Origin: Curvularia clavata
Lineage: Eukaryota
DNA: 64,000 nucleotides
NCBI GenBank assembly: GCA_023920165.1
Contig: CP089281.1
Span: 806,001 to 870,000 of the forward strand
Reading direction: 5' to 3'
This document shows, piece by piece, positions 4,678 through 61,180 of the stretch. The position numbers and the translations under genes are program-made. The notes below the pieces were generated by a model. That model saw nothing but the letters and a program-made list of their open reading frames with translations, was not told where the DNA came from and did no database searches. Position 1 is the first letter of the stretch. Each line of letters starts with the position of its first letter.

Positions 4678-6108
4678 TCATCGCAGTGGTTGAACGTTAG
4701 TATCAAGCCATTCTTGCGGCAGTGGTGACCCTCCTAATCCCCTGTCATCTGCCGTTTCGACATGTACACTGGTTTCAGTGACGATATTGATTGCATGCCC
4801 TGTTGGCATTGGCTTGATGATGGAGTCTTGCGACCCTGTTCGTGTGTAGCTGTCTTCATCGTACTCCATGTCATCGTTGTGTGATCGCGTAGCATAGCTA
4901 CGTGTGCCGCGAGAGTCAACTATGTGCGATATCTTTTTCCTTCCACCGGTGATTGTGATAGTACGTGAGGTCGAGGTGGGCTCCTTGGCATTCATAGAAT
5001 GGAGGTCGTAGTCACCTGGACGCGCAGCATTGGGGTTTGTTGCCGTAGCAGTCCTGTTGTAATGTCCTGTGCTCAAGTCTCCCGACACCAATACTCGTCT
5101 CGTCAGAGCATACAGGAGTGCATCGATCCATCCACAGGACGTAAGCAGACAGCCTGCGATGACGAAGAAGACGTCCGGGATATCATGACCTGTCATGACG
5201 ACCATACGCCCTACGGCAAGAGGTAGGGTTAGGATGACATAGACGGTGGGATACAGGACCATGAATTTGGTTGCCCGCGAAAGCTTGCTGGTGTTGTTTG
5301 CCACGACACTTCGAATGCGACCGCGTAGGTGAAAAAACAGATGCGCATAGATGGTAATTGTACCAAACTCGACAATGAAGATCCAAAGATAGTGTAGCCA
5401 GAGGCGCTCATCTTGATAGTCGTGTGAGACCCAACACTGTTACGCGTCAGTCCCAGGTTTTTCTCAAGACTTCGAAACAACAAGCAAACTTACCCATCCT
5501 GCAGCGCGAGAGAAGTACTGGTCTCTATGCATAGCCGGTCCCAGCACGGTAAGGAATAGCGCAAAGAACCAGATAGACAAAATCGCCATTACAAACCATT
5601 TGTATGGCATCTTGTATCCTTTGACCACGCCTAACCAAGTGTGTATAGCGATTGCAAGCACAAAGAAACCGCTCGAGACATCTCCGATTTGGAGGAACCA
5701 AGCCTGGATGAAGCATGCTCCCGTAGGCGCCAGAATCTTGTCGATTTTGAGCCAGTGGAATGATATGGAGAAGGCGACCGATTGCTGAAGATCAGCCAGT
5801 AGCAGGTTGTAGATGAGAATGACATATTGGTTGTAGCCGACGTATTGCTTGTAATGTTTTCGCCACGATATCATTCGCTGGGTGATGAAAGCAAGCAAGG
5901 CGGTAACAGATACCAAGCTCATGGTCGCAAATATGCCCAGAGGAACCAGACCTGCTTTGTAGATAGGCGTGAGAGGGTCTAGTGGCAGAGATACAGGTCA
6001 GTGTGACTCAGCAAATCGGTGCGTATATTACATACCCATACTATTGGGAGCTGCAAAGCGGTCCGCCCCAGGTGCTCGTGGTTCGAGAGAAGAGAACATG
6101 TCGGCCAT
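4678..6108 (-). CDS. Git3/Gpr1-like 7TM G-protein-coupled receptor
   Basis: Exons 6108-6036, 5978-5494 and 5436-4678; introns 5979-6035 and 5437-5493. Motifs LIYNLLLADLQQS, CFIQAWFLQIGDVSS, AAGWCWV, MVLYPTVYVILTLPLA, GWIDALLY. Confidence 0.85.
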
Positions 6109-9100
6109 GTTGTAGGATGATGTGCTCCCAATCCTAACAGAGTCGCTCACGATGAAGCAGGAAGATACTCGTGCTTTTAGCTCACCAGAACACCATGATC
6201 GGCAGTCAGAAAACCTTCGATTGTTCTAGTGAAGAATGAGTTTCGTGTGTTGTGTAGATCCAGCCGAGGGCTCCAGTGGCCCTATGCTTGATAGGGACTG
6301 ATAGGGAAGGTTTGATAGCAGACGTTGTACGTCGCTGTGAGGGCAGAGAAGATTGTTGACACTAGGGAGATTTCTGTCAAAGTATCCCAGAGAATGGGGA
6401 TTACGGGAAATATCAAATATCGCCCAAAAGCTAGTTGGGTGGAGTCAGGTGCCCTGTTAAGGAATCGGGTCCTCGGAGACAAGGGGATCAGCCAACAGAC
6501 CTGCTGCACCAGGTAAAACGGACATGCAGGCGCACCAGCCCTGACATGTTTACTGGGTCTGGGGTGCTTGACGATCGCCGAGACAGCAGGGCGCTACGCA
6601 TGCAGGGTTGAGGAGCGTACGTCGAGTTCGCGTTGGTGCCCCTCGTGTCGTCTGCTCCCCTTCCACTTCTAACGCCCATCGACATCAACAGCCGAGAACA
6701 TGCCCCGTATTAGGTATAGCCATCCTTTTCTAAGATGTAGAGAATATACCAGCAGGACGCCATATTCCCTTGTTTGTTCAGTGAGGCGTAACAGTGACGC
6801 AAAAGCAATGCACATAGACATGACTTGAAGCAAAGAGCAAAGTGTCGGCTTGTCAGAGATGTGGCGGGACGTTGTTGTTGATCCTGTTGGACGTAAGACG
6901 GGATAGGGTATGAACAACAGCCCGCCACCACGTGGAGCACGGCCCTGACATGGTTACGGATGGCACCTGTGAGGCTCGTCTGTGCAGACACCGAAAGCGA
7001 GCAAGATTGTCAGTGCCACAAAGCCGTGGCATCCGCTCCTCTCCGTATGGATGCGTACGCCATCAGTGGATCCTGCTTACAATGATTTGCCCTCGAGACG
7101 GTCTGTCATGTTGGTCTTGATGTCGGTTAGGACTGTGCCGCAGCTTGTGCGGCCCGGTATCCTTTCAAACCAGCACCGTCGCACGCCGTCCGCGGTCAAG
7201 GCCGTCTCCGTCTTGCCGCGCTCCATTTGTGGGGAGGGAGGGGGGATGTTGGCAGCTGGCGTCTGTGGAGGATGCGACACTAGGAGCAGGCGGATAATCA
7301 CTAGCAAGCTATGCTCTAGCGGCTTTTAGTGCAAAGGGGGTACTGCGCCGACAAGACGGCGTCGTGCGATGGAAAAACAATTGTCCATAACGCCATTAGT
7401 TACGTGCTTCAAATCCGTGTCGATGCGTAATTTGACAGGGGCGAACTATCCACCACATACGCACATCTAGACCCGCCCGTCTTCCTCTTTGCACATGCTA
7501 GGTATTTGAGATTGGCAATTGTCCCCTGGTTACCGAGACAGACGACATGGCTCGCCTGAACGGCAGTATGTGTAGATCCGTATAGCTGACTATCTAATGT
7601 CAAAATCAGGCTGTTAGACGCGGTAAGATACGGCCAGGTGCTTGTGGTACGAGCTTGGATGCAGGTGCTCTACACCAGTCAAATTCCAGCTACACAATAC
7701 AGCCTCATACTCATCAAGATATCCGGCAACTACCTGAGCAATTGGTCTTGAGGGGTTGTGGAATGTTCTTAGAGATGTGATCAACGGGTGTTGAATGACA
7801 GCTACTGGGCCCGGCAGAAGACGCCGAGTGACGGTGCCATTACGAGTAACTTTAACTCAATGGCTAGTATACAATTGGTTTGGACTCCTAAAAGAAATCT
7901 TTCTGTCGACTCCACAAGGCAGAGACGCGGGACTGTCATGGTCACAGGATCTGCATACCCCTGCTCCGCACCCGAGTCGTCTAACCCAACCACTTGTCAG
8001 GGGTCGGCCAAACCGCGGGCTACCTTCTCATCTGGCTAGAGTAGTGCTGTGCATTATACCTACCCCAGGCTTGGCTTCCCCAATCCAAGAAATGGGGTTG
8101 AGCTTCGTTTCCAACAACCATGCTGGTTATGGTTGTGGACAGCAGACCCTTCTGTTGTGTCATTTCCCCGCGGACGGATCCAGAACACCTGTAGAACCAA
8201 CACCCAATATAAGAAGGGCCGAGACCTGTTGTCAAAGAAAGGAAAAGCTCCGAGAATAGACATCGCGAGGTCCGTACCACTATGTATGTTACTCCTGCCG
8301 GCCGACATGACAGGAACGCAACAACGGGATTCAATACGCTCCTGGAACTAGGGCGTACCGGACATGCTATAAGATACTCGTCGCCTGATCGGTGTGACCA
8401 CCAATAGCTCTTGTGGCATAGTTGTATATTACCGTCGGCACATGTAGCGGCTCATATCGCCTGCTTTGGTTGACAGAAGAATCACACCATCTTTGATATG
8501 TGAATGAAGGGGTTGTCTATACCAGATGATCGTAGAAAGAGTTGAGCAATGAAAAAAAGAAGCATCAACATCTTGGTATAATGTCGCCTTGATTCAGTAC
8601 CAGCCAGCGTTGGCTACATTCGCAACACTCAACGAATGATTACAAGATTAGCCGGTCATCCAACCTTTTCAGTCTGCCTGTCTTCACCCGCGGAACCAAG
8701 GCGCTGCCTCAGAGGTGGCGTCCGGATACGAGGCGGAGATAAGATTTTACCGGGACTCTGTCGTCGAGATCTCGATATGATCCCGAGCTGTGTCCTAGTA
8801 GCCGCCAGATCTCTCCCTGCAAGCGATCATGAGGGGTACATACTCATGCTCCCATGTCTGTTCCAACATGGCCTGGCAGATTAGCCTTTGCCGCACAACA
8901 TGGAGTAGCAGATTTGTCAGATGAAACCTCTCACGCCGCTATGCCAATCTCCACTTCGTGCTTCGAGTATAGGCGAACCGTCTCGGTATGGATTAGCAGT
9001 CTTGCTAGCACTTGTGGAGGGAGGCCTCGAGCTGGCCTGGGTGCCGAGAGCTAGTCTAGGTGCCGCGGCTTTCTGCGGTGATGCTCCTCGGAGAAGTATT

Positions 9101-9366
9101 CGGCTTTGCGAGATTTTAGTCATGGAATGTTCGGCACCAGGTTGAAGCATAACGCGCGACTCAGCATAGGCGAATATTAAGATCAATTAGATACTCCTGA
9201 ACTTGCTTTAGAGGCCTAGAATTCTACCAAATATAACAGTTACCAGGAAGGAATCTAAAGAATCTTTTTCACTGTTCTCGAACATAATGTAGAGTTCCGA
9301 GGAAAACAAAAAAAAAGTACACAAAGAAAGTAATGATGATGGTAAAGTATCAGGCGTTTTTGCGTC

Positions 9367-9372
9367 ACGCGT
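9367..9372 (+). promoter_or_regulatory. MCB-like element ACGCGT upstream of separase
   Basis: Exact ACGCGT about 370 bp upstream of the ATG. A single hexamer, so it could be chance. Confidence 0.3.
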
Positions 9373-9740
9373 AGTTTTTCAGCCTGGTGGATGGATACAT
9401 ATAGCCGTAACAAACTTCAACAAGTACAATGATATACCAACCAGAGTTGAAGACATGTTCTTGCTCAGATTTGGCTGGGTAGATGGATGTACGGTGTCGT
9501 TATTGAACTGGGACTGTTCCCTGCCAGTCATTGCGGCTCCGGCGCGGGAGCAGGCAGCGGTTTGTACTAACCGGATGCGGTAGCGTGTTGTTAGGGCGCA
9601 ACATGGCAGCCAAACATCTCAACTTCGACGACACGCATGAGAGCATGCATACCTACCAGCGCACACTGTCTTCTTAATAATGTATAATCTAAGCCCCTGC
9701 CAAAAGTAGCGCATACGATCATACCACGTACTCCCGAAAG

Positions 9741-12700: not shown

Positions 12701-15700
12701 ATTCTTCAATACAAAAGGTGAGGAGTACCTTGCATTGCCGCTATTTCATCTCTTGGTTCGCATCTTTGAGCTTCAGAAGAGTGCCGATGGATCCAAGCTC
12801 CTTAGTACGATGTGTGCTTTGGGGTTACAATTCCTTCGTCTTGGCTACACTGGAAAAGCTGGTCTCTGTCTTGCCAAGGCTGAAGCGCTCATGGCATGCC
12901 GAACTTGTACAGTCGACGCCAAATTAGAGTGGCACTTGGCGTATGCAGAATATCTCTTGGGGGTAGGTAATACTGCGAAATGGTAAGAGGGAAACTCCGG
13001 TCGCTACTCACTATGTACTAATGTTTTGGCAGTTCGACAATTATGGCAAATGCCCAATCTATTGCTCTTGGAGATAACCAGTTCTTGGACCTCGCGAAGC
13101 CGACAACTACGCTTTCTGGCAGACTACGGTTCAACAGGATAGTAGCAGATGCATCTTATGTTCAGTCGCTGTTTGCCACTGCTGCTGGGTCGTATAAAGA
13201 AGCCGCTCGACATGCGAGACAGTGCGTCACACTGAACCGTCGCATTTGGGCCGCTCTTGAATCGCGGTCAAATGCCAGGAAAGCAACACCCGCGGACGAC
13301 TCCGAATCTGATATAGATGGGATGAGCCGAACAGCATTCGACCCATTGACCTCAGTGCGTATTGAAAAGGGAGTGCCTGTTGTTATGTCTGTAACACATG
13401 ACGCCCTCAACGGGCCTGACTTCTGGGCATTGGTCCCATCTCTGTATCGGGCTCTGATGCAACAGTCCCAGATATTTGCTCATCAAGGATTGCTACATGA
13501 GGCCATTTACGTTGCTGAACAAGCGGAAAAGGTTGCCTCTGCGACACAGTCTGCGACACTCAAGACCGATAATGCCAGCTGGCGTGCTGACTGTTGGGCG
13601 CAAAGCAATCGAACTGATAAAGCTGAAGCCATTCTGAAGGTGCTCGACGCACCTACTTCACGCAAATGTCTATCTACGGCCGGTTACTATTCCGCCGTTG
13701 CCAGGACCCATCACTGGAATGGCCAATACGAGCAAGAGATAGCGTCGTACAGCCTCATGGAGCAGCTCCTCACAGACTTGAGTTCACCCATATACATGAA
13801 GACTCTAGAATCTTTCTCTCCTTCAGTCGATACACTTACAGAACAACTGTCATCCTTGACCGTACAAGCTACCGAGGCGACCAAGCCAAAACCAGCAACG
13901 AGAGGCCGTAAGCCTGCAGCCAAAACAGCAACACGGGCAAATGCGAAACCGGCCACTGGTACTCGACCTAGAGCAGCCACGGGGCGAACAGCGAAGGCTG
14001 CTTCTAAAGTCAACCGCCAGCCTGATGCTCCGGCAGCACTGGATGGATCGAACACTGCAGAGCAATGTGCTGCATTATGTGTCTTCCAAGCTAGCATGAG
14101 AGATCGAGCCGTACTCGCAAATATCCTGCATGATGATCTCACCGAAGCATTGAAGCTCCTTGGACAAGCTGAAGATCTACAGAGCGGCCTCAATCAAGAA
14201 GTATCGCACATGTGGGCTACGTTCAAAGCGAGGCTTGCACAGAGCGCAAAACAAATTGCCGAGGATTTTACTGTCAACACGCTACCAGAGTCGACCATTG
14301 CGTTCCCTGCTTTTGGTCTCAAGGACCGCAGATTTTCCGAAGTGGGTCAAGTCGTTCCTCCCAAGAAAGGCACTGCAGGATCTTCTGCTGTTGCCAAATC
14401 TGGCCGAGCAAAGAAGCAATCGAAAGAGGATTTCATGGATACGCTGCGTGAAGCACGAGAAAGACTTGTAGAAGCACATGCTCTATGTGCTACTAATGGT
14501 TCCAATCATTTGTTTCGCCAAACCTCGATGGCCCTTGGCCACGTTACGGTACTGATGTCGGCCGTTTCTGGAAGCGACTTACCCGGCTCGTTGCACCCGT
14601 TGTATGCAGCTTACATGAGTGAACTACCCAAGGTCAATGCATTGCGACTGGTACAAGAGTCCACTGAAGCAGAGAAAGAGCAGCTATCCCGCGACGAGTG
14701 TCTGCGATGGCCAGTGACAGACCCCTCGTCTTTCTCGTTTGCTTCAGTCTCTGAGTTTCAGAGACTCTATGTTGACATCATTCCGGAAACATGGCATGCG
14801 ATATCGTTGGGTCTTAGCGAGGCCCGCGATGAGTTATTCATTACTCGCTTTGAGAGGGGACTATCTCCATTTGTGTTGCGTCTACCATTAGCTCGACACG
14901 CCTCTCGCGACATGGACGAAGACGAATTCTCGTTTGACGACGGAAAGAGAGACTTTGACGAACTCATTGAGCTTAGTGATTTCAGCACGCGGAGCGCCAA
15001 GGACATGACTTCCAGGGAGGCAAGACAGCAGTGGTGGGCCGAGCGCGAAGCTCTTGATACTCGGCTGCATGAGCTCCTGATCAACATGGAGAACATCTGG
15101 CTCGGAGGCTTCAAGGGTGTTTTTTCACAGCATGAGAGACAACCTGCTCTTCTTGCACAATTTCGGAAATCATTGGAAAGCATACTGGACGAGCACCTGC
15201 CGTCTCGCAGAAAGAAGAGTCAACAAAAGCGACCGGTGCTGGATACACGAGTTCTTGAGCTTTTCATTGGCCTAGGTGACGCTACCGACGAGGACCTTGA
15301 CCTGGACGAAGCGCTCATGGACTTGATCTACTTTGTCGTCGACATTCTCCAGTTCAACGGTGAGCGTAATGCCTATGATGAACTGGATTTCGATGCTATG
15401 GTGGTCGAGACATATGAAGCACTCCGTGCATACCACAGCGCGTCTCACAAACAGGAGGCAGTTACTTCTCATCACACAATACTCATCTTGGACAACAATC
15501 TCCATGCCTTTCCATGGGAGTCGCTGCCATGCCTGGAGCATCTTTCTATCTCGAGGCTGCCTTCTTTGGCTGCCCTCCGCGAAAGACTGCTCTCGGCCCA
15601 GCCATGTGCAGCCAAACCAGAAGACGCTCCACCTGGCCACTACATTCGTTCTAGCATTAGAGGAACTAGCATGCTCAACCCATCCGGAGACTTGGCTCAC

Positions 15701-19897: not shown

Positions 19898-21775
19898 ATG
19901 GCGGGCGGCAACAACAAGGATGGGAAAAAGAAGAAGGTGCTTGTTGTAGGAGCTGGAGCTGCGGGTACTGTGACGAAAACTAGATTTGAAGTTTGCAGTT
20001 GTTAATGAGAGGCAGGAATGTCATGTGCTCACCATCTATCTGAGCACCCTGACAAATTCGACGTAACACTTATTGATGCAGTCGACTACTGCGGCGGCCA
20101 GGCTTTCTCCATTGGAATCGATAAAGAACGACATGGCGCAGACTGGCTCAACCAAGGTGTCCAAGGTGGCAGTTACATTTTCCACCATACCATGACCATG
20201 TTTGCTCGACAAGGTCACCACGCGGATCCTGTAAATCTCCATGTGTCGTTTGGCAAAGACGACATCTTCTGGACCAATGTCTTCCCGACTGAACTCCTAG
20301 CACGGCACCAGGGAGAAATCAAAAGGTTCTACAGAATGCTTAAAATTGTCCGTTGGTTTGAGCTGTTCTTCGCTCTGATCCCCATCAAAGTGCTTTTTAA
20401 AATGTTTTTCTTCTCCGAAGAATTCACAAACACCGTTGCTATGCCCATGATCGCGCTGTTCCTTGGTACCGGAAACGAGACGCCAAATGTACCGAGTATT
20501 ATTCTCGAGCGGCTCTGCACGAGTCCTACGTATGGAATGTGGTATCCGCCGGACAAGCATAGCATTGCCAGTAACTTGCCGCCGATGGTAGTGTTTCCCA
20601 AGTTCAGCGAATTTTATGAGCGCTGGAGGCAGGATTTGCTTAAGAGAGGGGTTAACGTTCGGCTTTCGACTGAGATCACTCAGGTTGTCAAGAGAGATAA
20701 GACTGGTGTTACTGTCAAGTTGATCAAGCGCACGCCTATGCCTGACGCGCATAACCCAAACAGTTCACATGTACCATATGATGATGAGCATAATGCGGAT
20801 GCCGATGCCCTGGAGAAAGAAGAGCATTACGACGAGCTGATACTCTGCGTCCTGTAAGTCCCACATCCTTCCTTCCTCTCCTCAAAACCCAACACTAACA
20901 TACCCGCCACTCTCAGCGCCGACACTGCCAAGCGCATTCTAGAACCCACCGCCTCCCTCCGCGAAAAGCGCGTCCTGGGCTCCGCAAAATTCTCCAACGA
21001 CATAACCGTCACGCACTGGGACTCAGACTACATGCTCAAACACTACGAAAACTTCTACACACCCACGCGCTCCGTGTCCTCGCTCAGCAACATCGACCAG
21101 TCCGGCCGAAACGACTACGCATCCAAAAACTTCAAGCCCATGTACTACATCAAAATGTATCCTCAAGACCGCTCCAAGCTAGAAATGTGCTTCGACTGCA
21201 CAAACTACCAATCGCAGTTCCCACCAGACATGCCCTTTGACAAGCACGTGTTCCAAACCATTTACCTGAACAAAGAGCGCGACGGCCACCTGTGGAGCAT
21301 CGATGAAATCGACAAGGACAAGATTATCCGAAAGGACTGGTGGCATCAGCTGTGCCACTCATGGACCCATTATCTCTTCGTGGTGCCCTGGATGTGGGCG
21401 CTCCAAGGACGCAAGCACACGCGTTTCGCAGCCGCATGGACACTAATCAACGCGCATGAAGTGGCCGTTATGAGCGGTATTGCGGCGGCTGTGGACCTGG
21501 GCGCAGAGTACCCTGCGGATCTGGAGAGGGATAGGTTTGCGTTTTTGTGCTTTAGACTGTACTATCTGCTCGCGTATGGAAAGTGGTATCGGAGGAGGGC
21601 GACAAAGAAGACAAAGGAGGGGCCGGGCAAGGACTGGGCGAGTGGGCTGTATGGGAGCGTGTATAGGGGTCCTGGTGTTACGGATGTGGATCGCTCGCAG
21701 TGGAGGGAGGAGAATGGGATTCAGAGTGAGCCGGAGAGGTATAAGTTTCCCAAGAATGCTGGGCATAGAGAGTGA
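19898..21775 (+). CDS. FAD/NAD(P)-binding flavoprotein (flavin-containing amine oxidase-like)
   Basis: N-terminal Rossmann motif KVLVVGAGAAGMSCA and YCGGQA. Introns 19965-20015 and 20854-20916 join the frames. C-terminal NAHEVAVMSG. Confidence 0.85.
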
Positions 21776-49682: not shown

Positions 49683-52600
49683 TTAAATCTTGGTCCATTT
49701 GAGTAGCATCCCAGCTGCAACCACTGGCAGCACACTGACGAGCTCACCCAGCCCGGCGAACTCAGGTGGAATTCTTGCATGGACAAACGCTCCAGCCGCA
49801 AGCAAGATGGCGAAGGTATTATAAACGAAACTCCATCCAAAATTAAACCAAATGCGATGAGTCGATTTTCGACTGACTTTTATGGCGGTAAGTACGCCGG
49901 CAATACTTGGACGCATGAGAACAACGTCTGCCGCAGATTTGGCTACGTCGGTTCCTTCATTCATGTGTACGCCAATCGAGGCTTGGGCAAGGGCAACTGC
50001 ATCGTTGGTTCCATCTCCGCAGAACATGACGACTGGTTTTTCGCTGGGCTTCTTAGATCTCCGCGAGTCTGGGGCGGCGAAAAGCTCGTTGATGTAGTCT
50101 CGCTTCTCTGTCGGGGTGCAGCGGGATCGAACATTCGAAGCAGGAATACCAAGCTGAGTTGTGACTGCCAGAACTGCGCCTTCATCATCCCCGGAAAGGA
50201 CATGGACTGTGATACCATCTTTTTGTAGTTGGGTGATGGTCTGCAATGTATCGTCTCGAAGGGAGTCTTTGAGGCCAAACACGGCAGCGAGTTCACCATC
50301 GATAGTGAAACAGAAAGCAGTCAGACCTGGAGAGAGCATGGCCTGAACAGCAGTGTTTTCCGAGAGGCCGAGCCATCTGGAATTGCCCGCACGGAGACTA
50401 CGACCGGCAAAAGCACCCTCAATGCCTTTACCGACTAAATGTTTCGGGTCGGACACAGTCGTAGCAGCGACACCTTCGGCCTTGAGGTAATTTGCAACTG
50501 CAGCGGAAACTGGGTGTTTGCTGCTGCTGATCAACCCTAAAAGCAACGCTTTTGTGCTGGCCGAGGAGTTCAGGTATTCTTCTTGAGAAATGGTAAGTCT
50601 CCCTTGAGTCAGTGTACCCGTTTTGTCAAAAACAACATGAGCCGTCTTCCAGGCAGTTTCGATAGCGTCTGCAGACTTGAAGATAACGCCCCTCTCAGCA
50701 GCAACACCTGTCGATACGACTATCACCATTGGTACTGCGAGGCCAATGGCGCATGGGCATGATACGATCAAGACGGTGATGGCGTAGGTGATGGCTTGTA
50801 CCGTGGCCTCGGAAGCTGGTTTCTTTTGCACTGCGGTGCCAACAGCCATCCAAATGCAGAACACAATGACGGTGATGGAGATGACAACAGGCACAAAATA
50901 TGCTGCTACCCGATCCGCAATCTCTTGAATCTTGGGCTTAGATAGTTTGGCCTCGTCGACCATACTCGCGATAGTGCTAATGGTATTATCTCCAGGAACC
51001 CGAGTAAGCCGAACAGTTAGAACTCCTGACCCATTGATAGACCCAGCAATAACTGATGACCCTTTCGACTTCTCAACTGGCCTCGACTCGCCCGTGAGCA
51101 TGGACTCGTCGATCTCAGAAACGCCTGATATGACAGTTCCATCGGTAGGTATTCGCGAATCTGGTGATACTCTGAAAACGTCACCATACTGAAGTAGTCT
51201 TGCGTCAATAACCTCGTCCGCGTCGTCGATGCCCGACCGAACTAGCGTTGCAGAACTTGTTTGCAGAGAACGGATAGAAATCGACTCAACCGCTTTCTGA
51301 CGAGCAAGAGCAGCGATGAATCGACCAACCATGATGAGTGTGACTAGCAATGTACTCGTTTCGAAAAACTCGCCAGTCGATAGCGGCTTGTGATGAACGA
51401 GATAGCCAAACGCTACGACTGAGAAGATGTAGGCGGCACTTGTACTCAGAACAATAAGAAGGTCCATTTCAATCACCCTCGAGAAGATCAAGGCTTTGAG
51501 AGCTTTGGGATAAAATGGCCCAGCAACTACAACTTGGATGACAGTTGCGAATGCCAATGATATAGACCCGAATGTAATCTCCTTCTGGTCTTTGTTGGGA
51601 AGTGGTGCCCATGCTAGGACCAATACGGGAATTGTCAGAAGGATGGACAACAGTGTCATGTACCCTACATGACGGACATGTCGAGCACCGGCATCCAAAG
51701 TAGGATCAGCACTAGGCGAAGCCAGTGACATGGGGGTTGGCCAGCCCTTTTCGACGAGATCACGCGCCCCGATAACTTTTGCGTCGAAATCAACCCGAAT
51801 GGTTCTTTTGTCAACCACTCTGACTTCAATGACTCCGTTAGGCCAATCGCCCTTGACGATATCAGTGCTGTCGCCGGTGCAGATAAGGTCCAGACTAGAG
51901 CCTTGGTTTGTAATGCGCTCACATTTGAACTCGGTTGTTCTCTCTAAATGTTTAATGATTTCAGCTACAGATTGAGTGTGGGTGTCGAGATCGAATTCGG
52001 CGCGAGAAAGCACAAGGCTGGTCTTGAGTTTTGTGATCGATGGAAGTGTAGCTAGTGTGCGCGATAGCTTAGTCTCGCAACCAGTGCAAGTCATGCCTGA
52101 GATGCTGAGGATAACATGTTCCTTTGCTGCGAGACCCTTTTCGAGATCGTCGACCCGCGCCGTGGTTGATTGGACTTCTTTTATGTCTTGCAGTATGCCT
52201 GTCTTTGTATCCATACAACAGGTGTCCGCACCTGGCTCTTTGCTCTCACAGCAAGTGTCGGTACCTTGTGGAGGCTTTTCATCGCTGCAGCAAGTTTCAG
52301 TGCAGGAAGACTTTTTGATCGAGGCACCAGCTTCTTTAGCTTTGGGTGCGCAACAAGAGTCGGCTGAGACAGAAGATACAACTGAAACACAAGATCCTGA
52401 GGGCCTCTCCAAGGAAGGTCGTCGCAATCTCGAACAGCATGAATCTTGACCAGGAGCAAGCGTATCAACGGTAGGAGAGGGTTTGTCCCCACAACACTTT
52501 GTGGCCTTGATCGAATCGACTTTGTCGGTGTTGGAGGAGCAGTGGCTATCCTCGTCTGGTACATCTCCGGCTTGGTTCTCACAACAATCGTCCTGACAAC

Positions 52601-52736
52601 CAGCGGCAGAGTTGTAGTTTGTCTTTAGTTCGGCATTGGAACAGCTGTCTGTGTCATCGTTGGCTGGTTTCTGGGCCGAAGTGTGAGTGGCAGGAGGCGA
52701 TTGTTGGGGGCTACAACATCCGGAGCTGCAAGCCAT
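49683..52736 (-). CDS. PCA1: P1B-type heavy-metal-translocating ATPase, Pca1-like (Cd/Cu efflux)
   Basis: Intronless. Cys-rich N-terminus, HMA GMTCTGC, TGES, CPC, DKTGT, HP, GDGTND. C-terminal IPPEFAGLGELVSVLPV resembles yeast Pca1 as I recall it. Confidence 0.9.
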   Translation of the reverse strand: MACSSGCCSPQQSPPATHTSAQKPANDDTDSCSNAELKTNYNSAAGCQDDCCENQAGDVPDEDSHCSSNTDKVDSIKATKCCGDKPSPTVDTLAPGQDSCCSRLRRPSLERPSGSCVSVVSSVSADSCCAPKAKEAGASIKKSSCTETCCSDEKPPQGTDTCCESKEPGADTCCMDTKTGILQDIKEVQSTTARVDDLEKGLAAKEHVILSISGMTCTGCETKLSRTLATLPSITKLKTSLVLSRAEFDLDTHTQSVAEIIKHLERTTEFKCERITNQGSSLDLICTGDSTDIVKGDWPNGVIEVRVVDKRTIRVDFDAKVIGARDLVEKGWPTPMSLASPSADPTLDAGARHVRHVGYMTLLSILLTIPVLVLAWAPLPNKDQKEITFGSISLAFATVIQVVVAGPFYPKALKALIFSRVIEMDLLIVLSTSAAYIFSVVAFGYLVHHKPLSTGEFFETSTLLVTLIMVGRFIAALARQKAVESISIRSLQTSSATLVRSGIDDADEVIDARLLQYGDVFRVSPDSRIPTDGTVISGVSEIDESMLTGESRPVEKSKGSSVIAGSINGSGVLTVRLTRVPGDNTISTIASMVDEAKLSKPKIQEIADRVAAYFVPVVISITVIVFCIWMAVGTAVQKKPASEATVQAITYAITVLIVSCPCAIGLAVPMVIVVSTGVAAERGVIFKSADAIETAWKTAHVVFDKTGTLTQGRLTISQEEYLNSSASTKALLLGLISSSKHPVSAAVANYLKAEGVAATTVSDPKHLVGKGIEGAFAGRSLRAGNSRWLGLSENTAVQAMLSPGLTAFCFTIDGELAAVFGLKDSLRDDTLQTITQLQKDGITVHVLSGDDEGAVLAVTTQLGIPASNVRSRCTPTEKRDYINELFAAPDSRRSKKPSEKPVVMFCGDGTNDAVALAQASIGVHMNEGTDVAKSAADVVLMRPSIAGVLTAIKVSRKSTHRIWFNFGWSFVYNTFAILLAAGAFVHARIPPEFAGLGELVSVLPVVAAGMLLKWTKI

Positions 52737-53496: not shown

Positions 53497-55152
53497 CTAC
53501 ATAACTAGACTATTGAGGCGAAGGACTACCTTCTCGATATAGCGAGCTCCGACAAGAATTCCATTCTCGTCTTCGAACGCTTTCTCATCTCCAAAATCAA
53601 CATTGCCTGGATCCAAGCAAGTCAAACAAGTTTCCACGATCTCCGCATACCTATCGCCCATGCTCCCTGGGAGACGGCATCGAACAAGAGATATGAAACA
53701 ATCTTTTATCTGGTCTCCGGAATGTGGCAATACGGATTCTTTGCGTTCCAAAGATGGCCCCGAAAGTAGTTGCGAAAGTGTGCGTGCCCCAGTAACGCGA
53801 TTATAGTCTACTAAACTCCTCCAAAGACCAACTTCTAATAAGCAAACACCCAAACTGTATATGTCGTGGCGCATCTCGTAGTCGTCACGAGGGTTGAAAC
53901 CTTGGCGCGATGGATGTCTATACAAGTTCTTGTCAGGCATATCATCACCTCGTCGCTGCGTCCAGCCTTCGTCTCGTCGGAAGTTTTCGAAGCCAACCAA
54001 TGCGGCTCTGCTTTGTCGATTGTCGCGATTGAAGATAATGATTGATTCCGGACGTATGTTCTTGTGTACAAAGCCGAAGGTATGCACATAGCTAACAGAT
54101 TTGGCTAAATCTCGTGCGATTTCAAGTCGTCGAGTGATGGATGTGGATGCTGGCGTGTGAAGTAAAATGTCTCGCAAACTCTTCAAATCATGCGAAGCTG
54201 GAGGATTTCGGAACACCAGCGTTATGGATAGATTTTGAATAAGTCCTGCTGAGACTAGTTCCGCTACGAAACCTTTGCACTTCAGCAAGCCAAAAGTATT
54301 CGGGTCATCAGCTTGTAGCTTTTGCACCAAGTCGCGAACATTTCGTTTGAGTATTTGTGGCTTCGCACCAGGTTCGCACTGTATGTGGTTCAGGATGTAC
54401 CTGCTTACTGATCCATTTGAGTGTGTCCTGGTTGCCACCGCGATGCCTTCGCAGAAGGGAATTGCTTGGGTGGTCATACTCCTCAAATCGCTAGAGCTTA
54501 GAGTAACGTGTTCAGCTGTTGAAACCCCATGATTTGAATCAGCTGTGTGCTGCAAGCCAGCGCGTATGGTTTTCATTGTCTTCATAACCGTGCCAGATCT
54601 AGGTTCGTTGCTGCTGCCGCATATAGCTAATGCTTGGTCCACTTGGCTATTAGCGATTCTCAGAAGAAGGAACCAAGACTGGTCAGCTACTCCTTGCCAC
54701 TTTTCGAGATCCTCGATGGCTTCATCTAGGCTGCTTTTCTTTCCTGCATATTTCCATCGACGGACCTTGTACGTGGATAATGATGTTTGTTCTTCGCTTC
54801 CCGGCTGCGGTTTTACAAGATCCCTCAACAGCGACACAACGATGCCCAATTTGTTTTGAAGAATGTCCAAAGTCTGACTGTACACCTCTCTTTGCTCATC
54901 CTCCATTACTGGATAGGTGCGTTGGAAGAAATTCAGCTGGGATAGGAATCGTATCCAGTTATTGTCGAGCCGCACACAACGCTCAGAAACTTCAGTATTG
55001 GCATGTTTCAGGGTAGAGCATAAATCTCTTCCCTCCTTGATATACCTTTCTTCGCGTTAGCAATATCGAGACGAGCTCCGGCTCTTTTGCACAACTTACT
55101 TGAGGCAGAGATCTATGGTTGGGGGAACCGCTAGCAGAAGTTCTGCGGACAT
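53497..55152 (-). CDS. HeLo-like helical domain + pseudokinase (MLKL-like architecture), ~533 aa
   Basis: Exon 1 55152-55100, intron 55046-55099 (GTAAGT..GCTAAC..AAG), exon 2 55045-53497. N-terminus MSAELLLAVPPTIDLCLKY...RLDNNWIRFLSQLNF. Kinase-like C-lobe VHKNIRPES, LVGFENF, LYRHP, DIYSLGVCLLEVGLW. Confidence 0.82.
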
Positions 55153-55671
55153 GTCGAGCGGCTACCAAATTCAAGTTTTGAGGATTTATTTTTATGAGAA
55201 GGGGTCAAAATAATCGAGAAGACGAGACAAACAACTTCAGTCGGATGATAATGAGCAGCGGCTAGACTAATTAATGAGGTCTACGTGGAGGCACTGCACT
55301 CCATGAGGCAAAAACTAACACTAGAACTCGCCGTGCCAGTTGCCTTGCATAATACGCGACAACGCGTATGACAAGGCTGAGTTGATTTGTCACATTTAGG
55401 GCTATACATGTGGCTTCCAGCCTCTGGTCCGATTCGTTGTCTTAGAAGCCGAAACGGTCATAGTAGCTCAGCCTCGTGCGCTCCGCCCCAATAATGGGGT
55501 GGGTGGATTGGATTCCTGAAACCCCACTTATATACACTGCCGCCTAACAATCTCACCTTACGTACCATTACTTCTACTCTTGATCAACTTCTTTCGCCTT
55601 ATCCACTGCATCTTAATGTATCTATATGTTGTACAGCCACTGTTCCACGACTTTGGTGCTCATGAGTTCAG
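55153..55671. promoter_or_regulatory. Shared divergent promoter between the pseudokinase and kinase genes
   Basis: The two ATGs point away from each other, 519 bp apart. TATA-like TTATATACA near 55528. Confidence 0.55.
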
Positions 55672-58292
55672 ATGACGCCTTTACGCGAGTTGCCAGAGCT
55701 TGTCCAAGATTCACAACTCCAGGTAACCATTCGCGATAACATCACCATCCACATCGAGCCACTCGAATGTCGAGATGCCTTCGCACCACAAACATGGCAG
55801 TCAAAGAGAGTGGTTGGCCGCGGAGGGGACGGTACTGTGTTCCTTCAGCATAAGATCGAAGGACCCGGCGCACTAGATATGATCGCTGTTAAGCAGATGA
55901 GCCTCAATGCTGATCTTGATTCTGAAGACCACGACAGCAAAAGATACGTGCGCGAGCTTGAGGCTTTAGCGAAGTTTGCGCAAGGAAAAGTGTGTTACAC
56001 GAGAATGCTGTTTGTAAACGTTACTGATATTTCGTGCAGTATTCGCGTTACTTTGTAAGATCATATGGTTGGTACAAAGAGGATGGTTGGCTCTATATAT
56101 GTATGGAGTATTGTAAACATTTGGACCTTGGAAAGCATCTGAGAACCCATGGGCCATTGTCTGAAGAAACTGCCAGGACCATTGCTCTGCAAGTTCTCCA
56201 AGGATTAGTCCAGATGCACAGAAACAAGATCGCCCATAGGGACCTGAAGCCCGCAGTAAGCGTTGTGCAATCCGCGTCCTAGCCAAAACATGGCTGATTA
56301 ACTTCACAGAATATCTTGATACATCGAAAGCTCCCAGAGGATGACGCTTGGTGGGTTGTGCTTGGAGATCTTGGTCTTAGTCGGCGCAGCGGTGCCTCCT
56401 CGGGAACGACCACCATCCGCGGCACTCCAAGTTTTATGGCTCCTGAGACAATTGGAAAACCCTTTTTGGGACACCCGAGTGACGCAGATCCCTTTCTTGC
56501 TGATATGTGGTGTTTAGGGGAGACGATATCATGCGCTATAACGGGACATGGCACGTTTTCCGACAATGAGCAACTCCTTCGGTACCAGAAACACCGTGCA
56601 AGCTTTCCCGATAGCGCTTTGAAAGAATCAGGGGCCAGTTCCGATGCGATTGACTTCATCCGTTCCCTCATGGATGTGAACCCTCAACGGAGACTGACTG
56701 CTCCGCAAGCTCTGAATCACCCTTGGATCAAGACCAATCATACTTCACATACTTATACTATTGGCGCTGCTATTCCAGGCACAATGCATAAAAGTGGGGA
56801 AAAGTCTTCAATAACCCTCAAAAGATCCGAAAAGGATACATTTGATATCGAAGATCAGAAGATCCCAAGGGTCACCCAGACAACACAAGCTTCTGCACAA
56901 TGGACACAGACGTTGCCCATACACTCAAGCAACACCAAAGCTTCTCAAGATTGGGATGCAACTGTTGCATACACCAAACTGAAGGGAAACAGCTCGGCGT
57001 CCCTTGATAGATTGGCAGGTTCTGGAAGTAGCCTAAAACCCACAACCATGCACACGCAAAGTACACCGGCGCTCGGTCAAGCCCTAAGCCTCTCGTCATC
57101 TGAAAAGGCTGAACCGAATCTGGGTCAAGGTGGCCATAAGTTGAAAGAAGTGCCTGAACAACACGCTTCTCAATTGTTCGAACAGGATGTTCTCGATTCA
57201 TTCAAGCGATGGTCAGTGGCCGAAAAGCTACGCATAGTCGAAATGCAAAACAATTTGGGACGTGAGAACATTGAGATAACACTAAGTGATCTTGAAAGAT
57301 TCAATGAAAATTTCAAGCTCGGCACTTCTGTTCCATGGGATCTTCTTCCCATTCTATCCAATGATAAAGAGAAGCAAAAACAGATCGAAGAAAGGCAAAG
57401 ACGAATAGAGACCTCTATCAAACAGGAAGTACCTATGCGTAATTTTGAGGCTGAACCAATGTACTATGGGACTCCAAAGGCGTCACAAGAAGCGCAAGAA
57501 TACGGTGTCCATAGATTGGAGAGAACATCGCCAACCTTGCAAGGGTCACAGCATAAACACGGTCCGACACGTTCATGGGCATCAGTGGCCGATAGCTCTT
57601 CATCACCCCAGGAACAATCGAAATTCCAGTCAGATGTAATTATCGTTTCGGATTCAGAATCAGCGGAGCCAGAAGAGCCAGGAGATTCAGACACGCTTTC
57701 AGATTCGAATGCGACCCTAAGCCTCTCACGACCTCTAGTTTCATATCCCATTCGAGAAATGAAACCAATTGCACCACCGGTTGCTCTGCACAAGGCTAGA
57801 CGCCCTATGGTTAAGTGGGCCGATTTGATAGGGGTAGAAAATTCTCGGTTTGGGAAGAGTGAAGAGAGAAGTTTGAAAGGAAGTAAGGCGGAAGAGGTCA
57901 GGAGAGATGGCAAATCTGGACGACGCAAGGTCCGGTTCGACGAATCAAACATAATGTCGGACAACCCGATAGTGCCGGAAAAGTCGCGGCTTACCGAGGA
58001 TAACATGAGAAGTTTTGAACGAATTCAGGCGAAGAGAGAAAGAGAGGCGGAAAGAAAAAAAGAGGTGGAGAGAGAAAGAGAGGCGAAGAGAGAAAGAGAA
58101 GCGAAGAGAGATAGATATGTGATAGAGGACGAAGTTGATTGGGTTAGGAAGAATTTCGAGAGAATATCGGAGCAAATGAAGGCGGACAAAGGGACAAGAG
58201 ACATGGATGCGGCAAAGGCAAAGTGGGAAAAAGAGGCGGCAGAGCGAAAAAGAGGCACCACCAACACAAGGAGGAAGGCAGTGAAATTCTGA
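55672..58292 (+). CDS. Ser/Thr protein kinase (~838 aa) with a long C-terminal tail containing a Pbp1/ataxin-2-like segment
   Basis: Introns 55990-56039 and 56256-56309. Motifs GRGGDGTV, IAVKQ, RELEAL, HRDLKPAN, DLG, GTPSFMAPE, DMWCLG, RLTAPQALNHPW. Confidence 0.88.
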
Positions 58293-59493: not shown

Positions 59494-61180
59494 ATGTCTG
59501 CCGGAGAGGTGCTCAAGGCCGACAAGGACTTTACCAAAGAAGTCGATGCGGCGATTCCAGAGGCGGAGAAGCTAGCTGCTGTAGGTCACGCAGCTGTTCC
59601 GCTATGCAGCGAAAGCTAATGCACTTGTTTAGAGCAACCCTCAAGCTGGAATCGATAAGCTACTGGTGCTCGAGAAGCAGACACGCCAGGTAGACACCGA
59701 CGTATCCCGCGCGCACGAACGTGTTCTAATCTATCCCAGGCTTCCGATCTTGCCTCGACCTCCAGAGTCATAATTGCCATCGTCACAATAGCGAAGAATG
59801 CGAAGGATTGGAATTTGATGAATGAGCAGGTCCTGCTCCTCTCCAAGAAGCATGGACAGCTCAAGCAGGCAACTACCAAGATGGTGCAAACTGTCATGGG
59901 ATTCCTGGATGAAACACCAAACCTGGAGACAAAGCTATCGGTTATTGAGACCCTGCGCACTGTCACAGAGGGCAAGGTAAGTGGCCACAATGTTGTCGAC
60001 ATATCAGCTGCTGACACATTATCAGATCTTCGTCGAGGTCGAGCGGGCGAGGGTAACGCGTATACTTTCAAACATCAAGAAGGAGCAGGGCGATATTGAT
60101 GCTGCCACAAACATCCTTTGCGAACTCCAAGTCGAGACATTCGGCTCTATGACTCGACGAGAGAAGACCGAGTTCATCCTACAACAAGTGGCGCTGTGCA
60201 TACAGAAGGGTGATTGGACACAGGCTGGTATCCTTAGCAGGAAGATTAGCACAAGGTACTTTGCACGAAAACCAAAGAAGACGCCGGAGCAGCTCGAGAA
60301 GGAACAAAAGGAGCGCGAGGAGCGTGAGAAGAACCGAAGCGTAGACGATCCTCCCATTGAGCCAGAGGATGATGTGACAGATCTGAAGCTTAAGTACTAC
60401 GAGCAGCAAATCCTTCTGGCGAAGCACGACGACAAGTACCTCGACGTTTGCAAACACTACAGACAGGTTCTGGACACAGAGGCTGTTGAAGAGGACCCCA
60501 ACAAGCTTCGAGCGGTATGCGACACTCCGCTTTGACATTTGAACTGTCACTGACCCCCACAGATTCTTCAACGCGTCATCTACTTCATCATCCTCGCACC
60601 ATACGACAACGAGCAATCTGATCTCATCCACCGTATCCAGCGCGACACTCGCAACTCTCAGATCCCACAAGACGCACAATTAGTGAAGCTCTTCACTGTC
60701 CCTGAGCTCATGAGGTGGCCAATGGTAGCCAAGCAATTTGGACCTCATCTCACCGAGAGTGACGTCTTCGACGCTGAGAAAGGCGACTCAGATGATCCAA
60801 AGGCATTCCAGCGGTGGCAGGACCTACGAAAGCGTGTGATTGAGCACAACGTCCGCGTTGTCGCAAAGTACTACACGCGTATCCAGATCCCACGCCTCAC
60901 TGAGCTGCTAGACTTGACCGAGGACGAGACGGAAAAGAACATCAGCGAGCTGGTATCAGCAAAGACTATCTATGCCAAGATCGATCGTCCCGCTCGCATC
61001 GTCACCTTTTCCAGGCCTAGGGACGCCGACGATGTATTGAATGAGTGGAGTAGTAATATGAAGAGCTTGCTTGGTCTTCTTGAGCGTGTCGACCATCTTA
61101 TCACCAAGGAGGAGATGATGGCACGCATTCAGCCGACCAAGGTAGACAAGAGCAAGGTGGCGAAGGGCAAAGCGAAATAG
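59494..61180 (+). CDS. RPN5: 26S proteasome lid subunit Rpn5 (PSMD12)
   Basis: LEKQTRQASD, LLSKKHGQLKQA, VTEGKIFVEVERAR, LQVETFGSM, PCI domain RVIEHNVRVVAKYYTRI, AKIDRP. Introns 59581-59632, 59690-59739, 59977-60025 and 60515-60562. Confidence 0.96.

Follow-up and report, generated by a model that had tools for sequence, protein, structure and literature searches.

The window analysed here is a 64,000-nucleotide stretch of the Curvularia clavata genome (GenBank assembly GCA_023920165.1, contig CP089281.1, positions 806,001 to 870,000 of the forward strand). It carries two divergent genes. One encodes a predicted N-terminal four-helix bundle joined to a catalytically dead kinase domain (the bundle-pseudokinase); the other encodes an intact Ser/Thr kinase (the partner kinase). 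In filamentous ascomycetes the two genes make up a single conserved module and are inherited together. The pair may act as a sensor kinase and an MLKL-like executor, which would make it a phosphorylation-triggered cell-death switch; we regard this reading as evenly poised between right and wrong. Kinase-to-MLKL signalling outside animals is an open question. An earlier note on this DNA, made from the letters alone, had proposed a RIPK/MLKL-like module at this site.

Conserved adjacency and co-inheritance

Adjacency was assessed in 80 metagenome loci chosen by similarity to the pseudokinase, which reduce to 58 clusters at 90% identity. A homologue of the partner kinase lies within 3 kb of the pseudokinase in 53 of the 80 loci and in 39 of the 58 clusters. 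The figure is 19 of 21 for clusters having at least 3 kb on both flanks, and in most of the 19 kinase-negative clusters the contig breaks off near the gene. The adjacent homologues show the same exon pieces as the window's kinase, at a median gap of 664 bp. As a control, a hidden Markov model of the partner kinase was run over the 321,486 bases that lie more than 4 kb from a pseudokinase on the same contigs and in the window; it found one kinase-like gene. The adjacency is far beyond chance. The recurrent kinase neighbour expected by the earlier note is therefore present in nearly all fully assessable clusters, and it belongs to a single kinase family.

The arrangement of the two genes varies between loci: it is divergent in 29 clusters, tandem with the kinase downstream in eight, and upstream on the same strand in three. 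Loci L041 and L063 have near-identical pseudokinases; between them the kinase is cleanly inverted on a 2.8-kb segment, with adjacency kept. The pseudokinase of L002 is 97.9% identical to an Alternaria ethzedia protein and has its kinase 552 bp upstream. Adjacency persists down to 33-40% protein identity, and its survival of rearrangement over such distances argues for selection on linkage. In seven database pairs of a kinase homologue and a pseudokinase homologue, the longest source contig is of identical size for both members.

Trees of the 37 paired sequences have 11 of 34 splits in common; none of 10,000 label shuffles reaches 11 (maximum 4). Patristic distances in the two trees are likewise correlated (Mantel r 0.84, reached by none of 2,000 shuffles). 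The congruent trees foreseen in the earlier note are thus found, in figures that, like those for adjacency, are inflated by common descent since the loci are relatives.

Some loci have a more complex kinase content. In L017, a second kinase-like frame (6023-6802, minus strand; Pfam Pkinase 4.8e-27) lies just past the partner kinase, so that a locus may in some cases contain two kinases. In L079, a single pseudokinase gene is followed downstream by two kinase-family genes (13364-14494 and 20144-21132, plus strand); the farther of these is the sole background hit of the control. The adjacent kinase of L007 (4937-7122, minus strand) is very divergent, with a long branch, 24-42% identity to the pieces of the window's kinase and a weak SH3 match. 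The L007 pseudokinase is sister to that of L005, and the DNA of the two loci is otherwise dissimilar; the L007 kinase may be a partner replacement. In L026, a 488-amino-acid frame without a Pfam family (8233-9696, plus strand) lies directly upstream of the pseudokinase on the same strand and could be a different partner.

Gene models, catalytic residues and partner kinases

The features of the pair are as follows, in window positions.

55100-55152, minus strand: exon 1 of the bundle-pseudokinase gene, covering the first 17 codons plus two bases of codon 18 (MSAELLLAVPPTIDLCL; the following K is completed by exon 2)
55046-55099, minus strand: intron of the bundle-pseudokinase gene, 54 nt, GT..AG, spliced out in contigs of X1, X3 and X9
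53497-55045, minus strand: exon 2 of the bundle-pseudokinase gene, an open frame of 515 codons plus stop, with the splice joint in X1, X3 and X9 contigs
54550-55044, minus strand: predicted N-terminal four-helix bundle and two short linker ('brace-like') helices, frame residues 1-165 (AlphaFold2 models)
53512-54495, minus strand: pseudokinase domain, frame residues 184-511 (VIA-align, Foldseek, Pfam PK_Tyr_Ser-Thr 5.1e-6)
54058-54066, minus strand: HKN replacing the catalytic HRD, residues 345-347 of the 533-residue protein (translation)
53986-53994, minus strand: GFE replacing DFG, residues 369-371 of the same protein (translation)
53959-53961, minus strand: activation-loop threonine T380 of the same protein, a candidate phospho-acceptor (family conservation)
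55153-55671, no strand: divergent intergenic region and shared promoter region, 519 bp between the two start codons (sequence)
55672-55989, plus strand: kinase exon 1, encoding an N-terminal motif specific to the family (LPELVQDSQLQVTI), the G-loop GRGGDG, the lysine of AVK and the alpha-C glutamate; boundary from RNA
56040-56255, plus strand: kinase exon 2, with HRDLKPA at its end (Pfam Pkinase 1.3e-17; transcript joints)
56310-58292, plus strand: kinase exon 3, the C-lobe with GDLG and APE, reaching about 56732, followed by a tail of some 520 residues (Pfam Pkinase 1.8e-17)
56883-56912, plus strand: kinase tail motif TQASAQWTQT, kept in the close kinase homologues P0121-P0127
57192-57377, plus strand: kinase tail segment (LDSFKRW ... 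LLPILSNDKEKQ), kept in P0121-P0135

Transcript contigs from public runs skip exactly the three modelled introns: the bundle-pseudokinase intron and the first kinase intron are skipped in X1, X3 and X9, and the second kinase intron in X1 and X3. This confirms the gene models and shows transcription of both genes in the same samples. The minus-strand product has 533 amino acids from two exons and the plus-strand kinase 838 amino acids from three. Exon 1 of the bundle-pseudokinase gene, which encodes the start of helix 1, agrees with the family consensus N-terminus in the alignment and lies within transcript contigs extending to 55272 and 55303. On the other side of the intergenic region the contigs stop at 55556 and 55558. 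The 519-bp spacing of the two divergent genes had been given correctly in the earlier note. At window position 58083, in the Lys/Glu-rich end of the kinase tail, two short X9 contigs lack two bases; this may be strain variation or a low-complexity assembly error.

Catalytic residues of the pseudokinase were counted in 51 family clusters of 400 or more aligned residues each. The HRD aspartate is missing in all 51, being replaced by Asn in 39, Gly in seven, Ser in three and Thr in two. The position of the DFG aspartate is Gly in 51 of 51, and the beta3 lysine is found in 0 of 51. Nine residues beyond GFE, the activation loop has Thr in 50 clusters and Ser in one; in the window's protein this residue, T380, would be the phosphorylated one.

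In the partner kinases these residues are kept. Among 37 representatives, 30 of which include exon 1, the HRD aspartate is present in 37 of 37, the DFG aspartate in all 36 aligned and the APE glutamate in 37 of 37; the AVK lysine and the alpha-C glutamate are present in 30 of the 30 with exon 1. Direct reading of the window's kinase gives GRGGDG, AVK, HRDLKPAN, GDLG and APE. The contrast between an intact and a dead catalytic site in the two genes is absolute. Both halves of the contrast had been noticed in the earlier note, as an intact Ser/Thr kinase in the one protein and a catalytically degenerate kinase fold in the other.

Judged from its sequence, the partner kinase is CAMK-like, not TKL/RIPK. 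A motif ahead of the G-loop, LPxLVRDSKLxTxF, is common to the partner kinases. The C-terminal part differs between clades. In the window's own clade (the window and L001-L012), the kinase has a tail of about 500 residues, of low complexity in the window's kinase, that contains two conserved motifs and has no Pfam family; a Pfam search found neither a RHIM nor any other family in the tail. The segment at 57192-57377 is the sole part of the tail detected by tblastn in L004 and L008-L010. A resemblance of the tail motif to an ataxin-2/Pbp1 segment was considered; no LsmAD or other Pfam match was found in 17 sequences, and the candidate was dropped. The kinase homologue P0133, a database protein of 755 residues, also has an AflR domain (PF08493, 4e-23); it is probably a merged gene call. 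More distant kinase relatives in Hypocreales (P0137-P0140, 825-1,060 residues, from Dactylonectria, Clonostachys and Stachybotrys) are kinase-TPR proteins.

C-terminal repeats were surveyed with Pfam in 34 of the 39 kinase-bearing clusters, using 14 tail open reading frames (ORFs) and 45 of 122 downstream ORFs on the same strand. WD40 repeats follow the kinase in 17 of these 34 clusters. A single open frame contains both kinase and repeats in L013, L048/L050 and L059, which proves the fusion there. After the kinase, L076 has TPR_10/TPR_12 repeats (5e-86), L077 ankyrin repeats (1.5e-58) and L025 a KA1 domain (3.3e-10). In total, 19 of the 34 clusters have WD40, TPR or ANK repeats with the partner kinase. 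Neither NACHT nor NB-ARC is among the Pfam matches of these 14 tail and 45 downstream ORFs. Each repeat unit measures 126 bp, with an internal DNA identity of 73-85%; short units of high internal DNA identity are typical of the repeats of fungal NLRs. The accessible part of a 2025 review (PMC12881547) describes fungal cell-death pathways as often being clusters of two or three genes, with sensors that carry WD40, TPR or ANK repeats. By analogy, the partner kinases of other clades resemble fungal immune sensors, which fits a cell-death or immunity reading.

Fold and kinship of the bundle-pseudokinase

AlphaFold2 models the window's bundle-pseudokinase as four long helices and a kinase fold, with two short linker helices between them (predicted local distance difference test, pLDDT, 73.8; predicted template modelling score, pTM, 0.73). 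These linker helices span 133-140 and 151-165, ahead of the kinase fold (184-511), and parts of the linker have a pLDDT below 50. P0024, a homologue with a complete N-terminus, was modelled over residues 1-198 and has helices at 2-30, 35-64, 67-94 and 115-147 (pLDDT 77.9, pTM 0.71). The helical N-terminal domain of the earlier note is thus predicted in both proteins, as a four-helix bundle.

The kinase fold of the modelled pseudokinase domain is unambiguous. VIA-align gives Z scores of up to 20.4, mainly to TK/TKL kinases such as FES, BRAF, IRAK1, IRAK4 and a plant RIPK, and Foldseek likewise returns a kinase fold. Pfam gives a single weak kinase match in the C-terminal half of the window's protein (PK_Tyr_Ser-Thr, 5.1e-6). 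The rat MLKL pseudokinase aligns to the window's model with Z 18.1 (root-mean-square deviation, rmsd, 4.6; 244 residues aligned), so that MLKL is compatible with the modelled fold but is not singled out. A family profile run against the sequences of solved structures gives weak kinase matches in the C-lobe only and nothing over the bundle.

Foldseek gives no match for the bundle at an E-value of 0.001 or better. HET-s and the animal MLKL four-helix bundle are not among its best 50 VIA-align matches, which is not evidence of absence. A profile search with the N-terminal domain for stand-alone HeLo relatives returned just five fragments of the same family, the word filter limiting its reach. In the ESM-Atlas, the nearest clusters to the truncated N-terminus of the window's protein are HeLo (PF14479; score 0.92, 158 shared features), and the complete P0024 N-terminus reaches a PF14479 cluster at a score of 0.95 with 181 shared features. 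It also aligns over 147 residues, with a template modelling score of 0.73, to an ESM-Atlas cluster of 513-residue ascomycete proteins, in which the labels are HeLo (32%), DUF7580 (29%) and PK_Tyr_Ser-Thr (16%).

DUF7580 (PF24476) weakly matches 21 of 92 family representatives over the kinase-like part (best 4.7e-6); one such score displayed is 19.2 bits, under the curated cut-off of 27 bits. The window's own protein differs from HeLo-DUF7580 proteins in matching neither PF14479 nor PF24476 in Pfam. Taken from these sequence and model comparisons, the bundle-pseudokinase is probably a divergent sister of the HeLo-DUF7580 proteins, with a HeLo-like bundle. HeLo membership of the bundle is probable and unproven, resting on look-alikes by language model and structure in the ESM-Atlas.

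The family is large. In all, 903 homologues of the bundle-pseudokinase were detected; among the best 120, which were listed, the named ones come from Pleosporales, Sordariales, Hypocreales, Xylariales, Diaporthales and Helotiales. An exhaustive profile search found 823 representatives (clusters at 50% identity) at an E-value of 1e-30 or better and 3,525 at 1e-10 or better.

Proposed mechanism, alternatives and known systems

In the proposed switch, the kinase would act as activator. The executor would be the bundle-pseudokinase, which combines a HeLo-like bundle and a short helical linker with a dead kinase domain. A trigger, presumably sensed through the C-terminal part of the kinase, would make the kinase active; it would then bind the neighbouring pseudokinase and phosphorylate T380, close to GFE. 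The pseudokinase would change conformation and free the N-terminal bundle, which would oligomerise and attack the membrane, leading to regulated cell death or a related immune output. A wider proposal is that filamentous fungi have a large family of such necroptosis-like cassettes, in which CAMK-like sensor kinases with WD40, TPR, ankyrin or other C-terminal modules phosphorylate the activation-loop threonine of adjacent HeLo-pseudokinase executors, and these permeabilise membranes. This extension is put forward tentatively, as having a little less than an even chance.

A number of observations weigh against the cell-death reading. On the kinase side, the closest solved structures are Rad53 (7.4e-19), then CaMK1/2, Chk2 and DAPK1, and the window's own kinase has no sensor repeat in Pfam. 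The window's clade is about 50% identical between fungal classes; such conservation looks more like that of a stable cellular function than that of a fast-evolving immune gene. The conserved activation-loop threonine could be structural. On the side of linkage, L026 and L056, both with assessable flanks, have no nearby kinase and their neighbours are unrelated or unidentifiable. L016, whose pseudokinase is near-identical to that of L017, has lost the kinase by a rearrangement 330 bp upstream, for which an assembly artefact is possible. Tree congruence and adjacency could come in part from plain vertical inheritance.

The remaining points against it concern the executor. There is no Pfam match in the first 215 or 315 residues of the window's protein at E-values up to 10. 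HeLo (PF14479), HeLo-like N (PF17111) and SesA (PF17107) are found in 0 of 35 N-terminal domains and 0 of 36 full-length relatives, and HeLo-type Pfam families match 0 of 92 further family representatives at an E-value of 0.01. VIA-align of the P0024 bundle returns generic helical bundles, the best being unrelated proteins at Z 11.7. The coiled coil of MLA13 (Z 9.5), the CC-R of NRG1 (Z 8.6) and AtMLKL3 (Z 7.7, rmsd 3.9, 125 residues) are all within the background of helical proteins. The rat MLKL pseudokinase ranks only 25th for the kinase fold, within 2.3 Z of many TK/TKL kinases, and MLKL is absent from the best 60 matches of the family profile to solved-structure sequences.

The module of the earlier note has therefore held in part. 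The predicted bundle, the dead kinase domain, the adjacency and the trees stand. Its kinase is not RIPK-like, since the nearest solved relatives are of the CAMK group and no RHIM was found in the tail. Its HeLo assignment has the ESM-Atlas look-alikes on its side, with the Pfam and fold searches against. Of the structural comparisons with MLKL that it had suggested, that of the kinase domain gave a kinase fold for which MLKL is not singled out, and that of the bundle stayed within the helical background.

The same evidence can be read as a signalling unit without lethal output: the kinase and pseudokinase would form an allosteric heterodimer or scaffold, the bundle would serve localisation or oligomerisation, and the output would be stress, growth or membrane signalling. 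LKB1-STRAD and RAF-KSR are examples of an active kinase and a pseudokinase in such a relationship. The repeat-free kinase of the window and the 43-72% identity of its clade between Dothideomycetes, Sordariomycetes and Leotiomycetes suit this explanation. So do the KA1 domain of the L025 kinase, a membrane-binding domain as in MARK-type signalling kinases, the inability of the fold search to separate the bundle from generic helical bundles, and the transcription of both genes together in ordinary RNA samples with no sign of lethality. It is nevertheless somewhat unlikely: the ESM-Atlas places the bundle nearest to HeLo families, the bundle-pseudokinases are numerous and highly diverse, with 823 representatives at an E-value of 1e-30 or better, and WD40, TPR or ANK repeats of high internal DNA identity in 19 of 34 clusters are a signature of fungal non-self sensors, according to the accessible part of PMC12881547.

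It is less probable still that the roles are reversed. The pseudokinase would then serve as an inhibitor, guard or decoy, keeping the neighbouring kinase in check or baiting pathogen effectors; the output would come from the kinase or its repeats, and any phosphorylation of the pseudokinase would act as a restraint, not as a trigger. Strict co-inheritance and co-transcription would fit toxin-antidote or guard logic equally well, the earlier note had likewise allowed that the kinase might restrain death, and kinase domains integrated in Sordariales NLRs have been proposed as decoys (PLoS Genetics 2025, PMC12258605, in the part available). Against this, the best-conserved parts of the pseudokinase are the activation loop, the C-lobe and the bundle, which fits an effector with its own output, and the variable sensor repeats sit on the kinase side, not the pseudokinase side. 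A lack of any functional link, with the two genes being neighbours only by inherited synteny or a shared bidirectional promoter, is very improbable. The loci were picked by similarity to one gene and are mutually related, so that descent inflates both adjacency and congruence; however, the linkage holds at 33-40% identity across three arrangements and an inversion, the background is a single kinase-like gene over 321 kb from the same contigs, and the catalytic contrast has no exception.

The sensor-executor reading is closest to RIPK3-MLKL in its predicted architecture: the fungal executor would likewise have a four-helix bundle, linker helices and a pseudokinase, and an active Ser/Thr kinase is its partner. 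The fungal executor also has GFE for DFG, has lost HRD and keeps a threonine a few residues after GFE. According to the available part of PMC6013482, MLKL orthologues have a GFE motif; in human MLKL the residues phosphorylated by RIPK3, T357/S358, come six and seven positions later, and HGK stands instead of HRD. There are also clear differences. The fungal partner kinase is CAMK-like with no RHIM found in its tail, rather than a TKL RIP kinase; the fungal genes are physically linked and co-inherited; and MLKL is not detectable as a sequence relative of the fungal pseudokinase. The beta3 lysine, which MLKL keeps (VAIK; PMC6013482, same part), is missing in the fungal family.

Plant MLKLs (AtMLKL1-3, Pm13) share the combination of an N-terminal bundle, which is of HeLo type in plants, with a pseudokinase. 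Their activation loop is proposed to regulate activity, and no dedicated kinase, adjacent or upstream, is named for plants, in the portion of 10.1101/681015 that was available.

Among fungal systems, HET-S/NWD2, HELLP/PNT1 and gasdermin with its adjacent protease are also two-gene clusters of an executor and a sensor, and their sensors often carry WD40, TPR or ANK repeats (PMC12881547, in the part available), as do 19 of the 34 partner kinases examined here. The pair differs from them in the switch proposed, which would be phosphorylation and not amyloid templating or proteolysis. It also differs in that no NACHT or NB-ARC was found in the kinase genes, and in having a pseudokinase on the executor in place of a prion-forming tail. 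The same part of that review states that some HELL domains occur on kinase or pseudokinase proteins, and calls for a broader study of HeLo and four-helix-bundle proteins. Full-text literature searches, with supplements outside their scope, found no description of a kinase gene conserved beside HeLo-pseudokinase genes; the available portions of PMC12881547, PMC9815663, PMC10197012, PMC12258605, PMC4835503, 10.1101/681015 and PMC6013482 carry no mention of such a kinase neighbour. The pair is best called a putative new form of the known fungal executor-sensor clusters and of RIPK3-MLKL logic.

Since each MLKL-like gene adjoins a presumptive activating kinase, both the partner and a likely phospho-site (T380) are named in advance, and the family would supply many natural kinase-substrate pairs for studies of specificity. 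If the proposal is true, fungal HeLo executors would have a third mode of activation, besides amyloid templating and all-in-one NLRs. Signalling from RIPK3 to MLKL would likewise gain a counterpart, independent or ancestral, with hundreds of co-evolving kinase-substrate pairs. Given the 823 representatives and the interchangeable sensor modules, the family could be a sizeable overlooked arm of fungal innate immunity.

Two further genes lie near the pair in the window. At 49683-52736 (minus strand) is a frame of 1,017 residues with a Cys-rich N-terminus, CPC and DKTGT, which by these motifs resembles a heavy-metal P-type ATPase. Downstream of the pair, the frame at 59990-60535 (plus strand) and the neighbouring exon-like frames presumably encode a proteasome-lid or PCI-type subunit.

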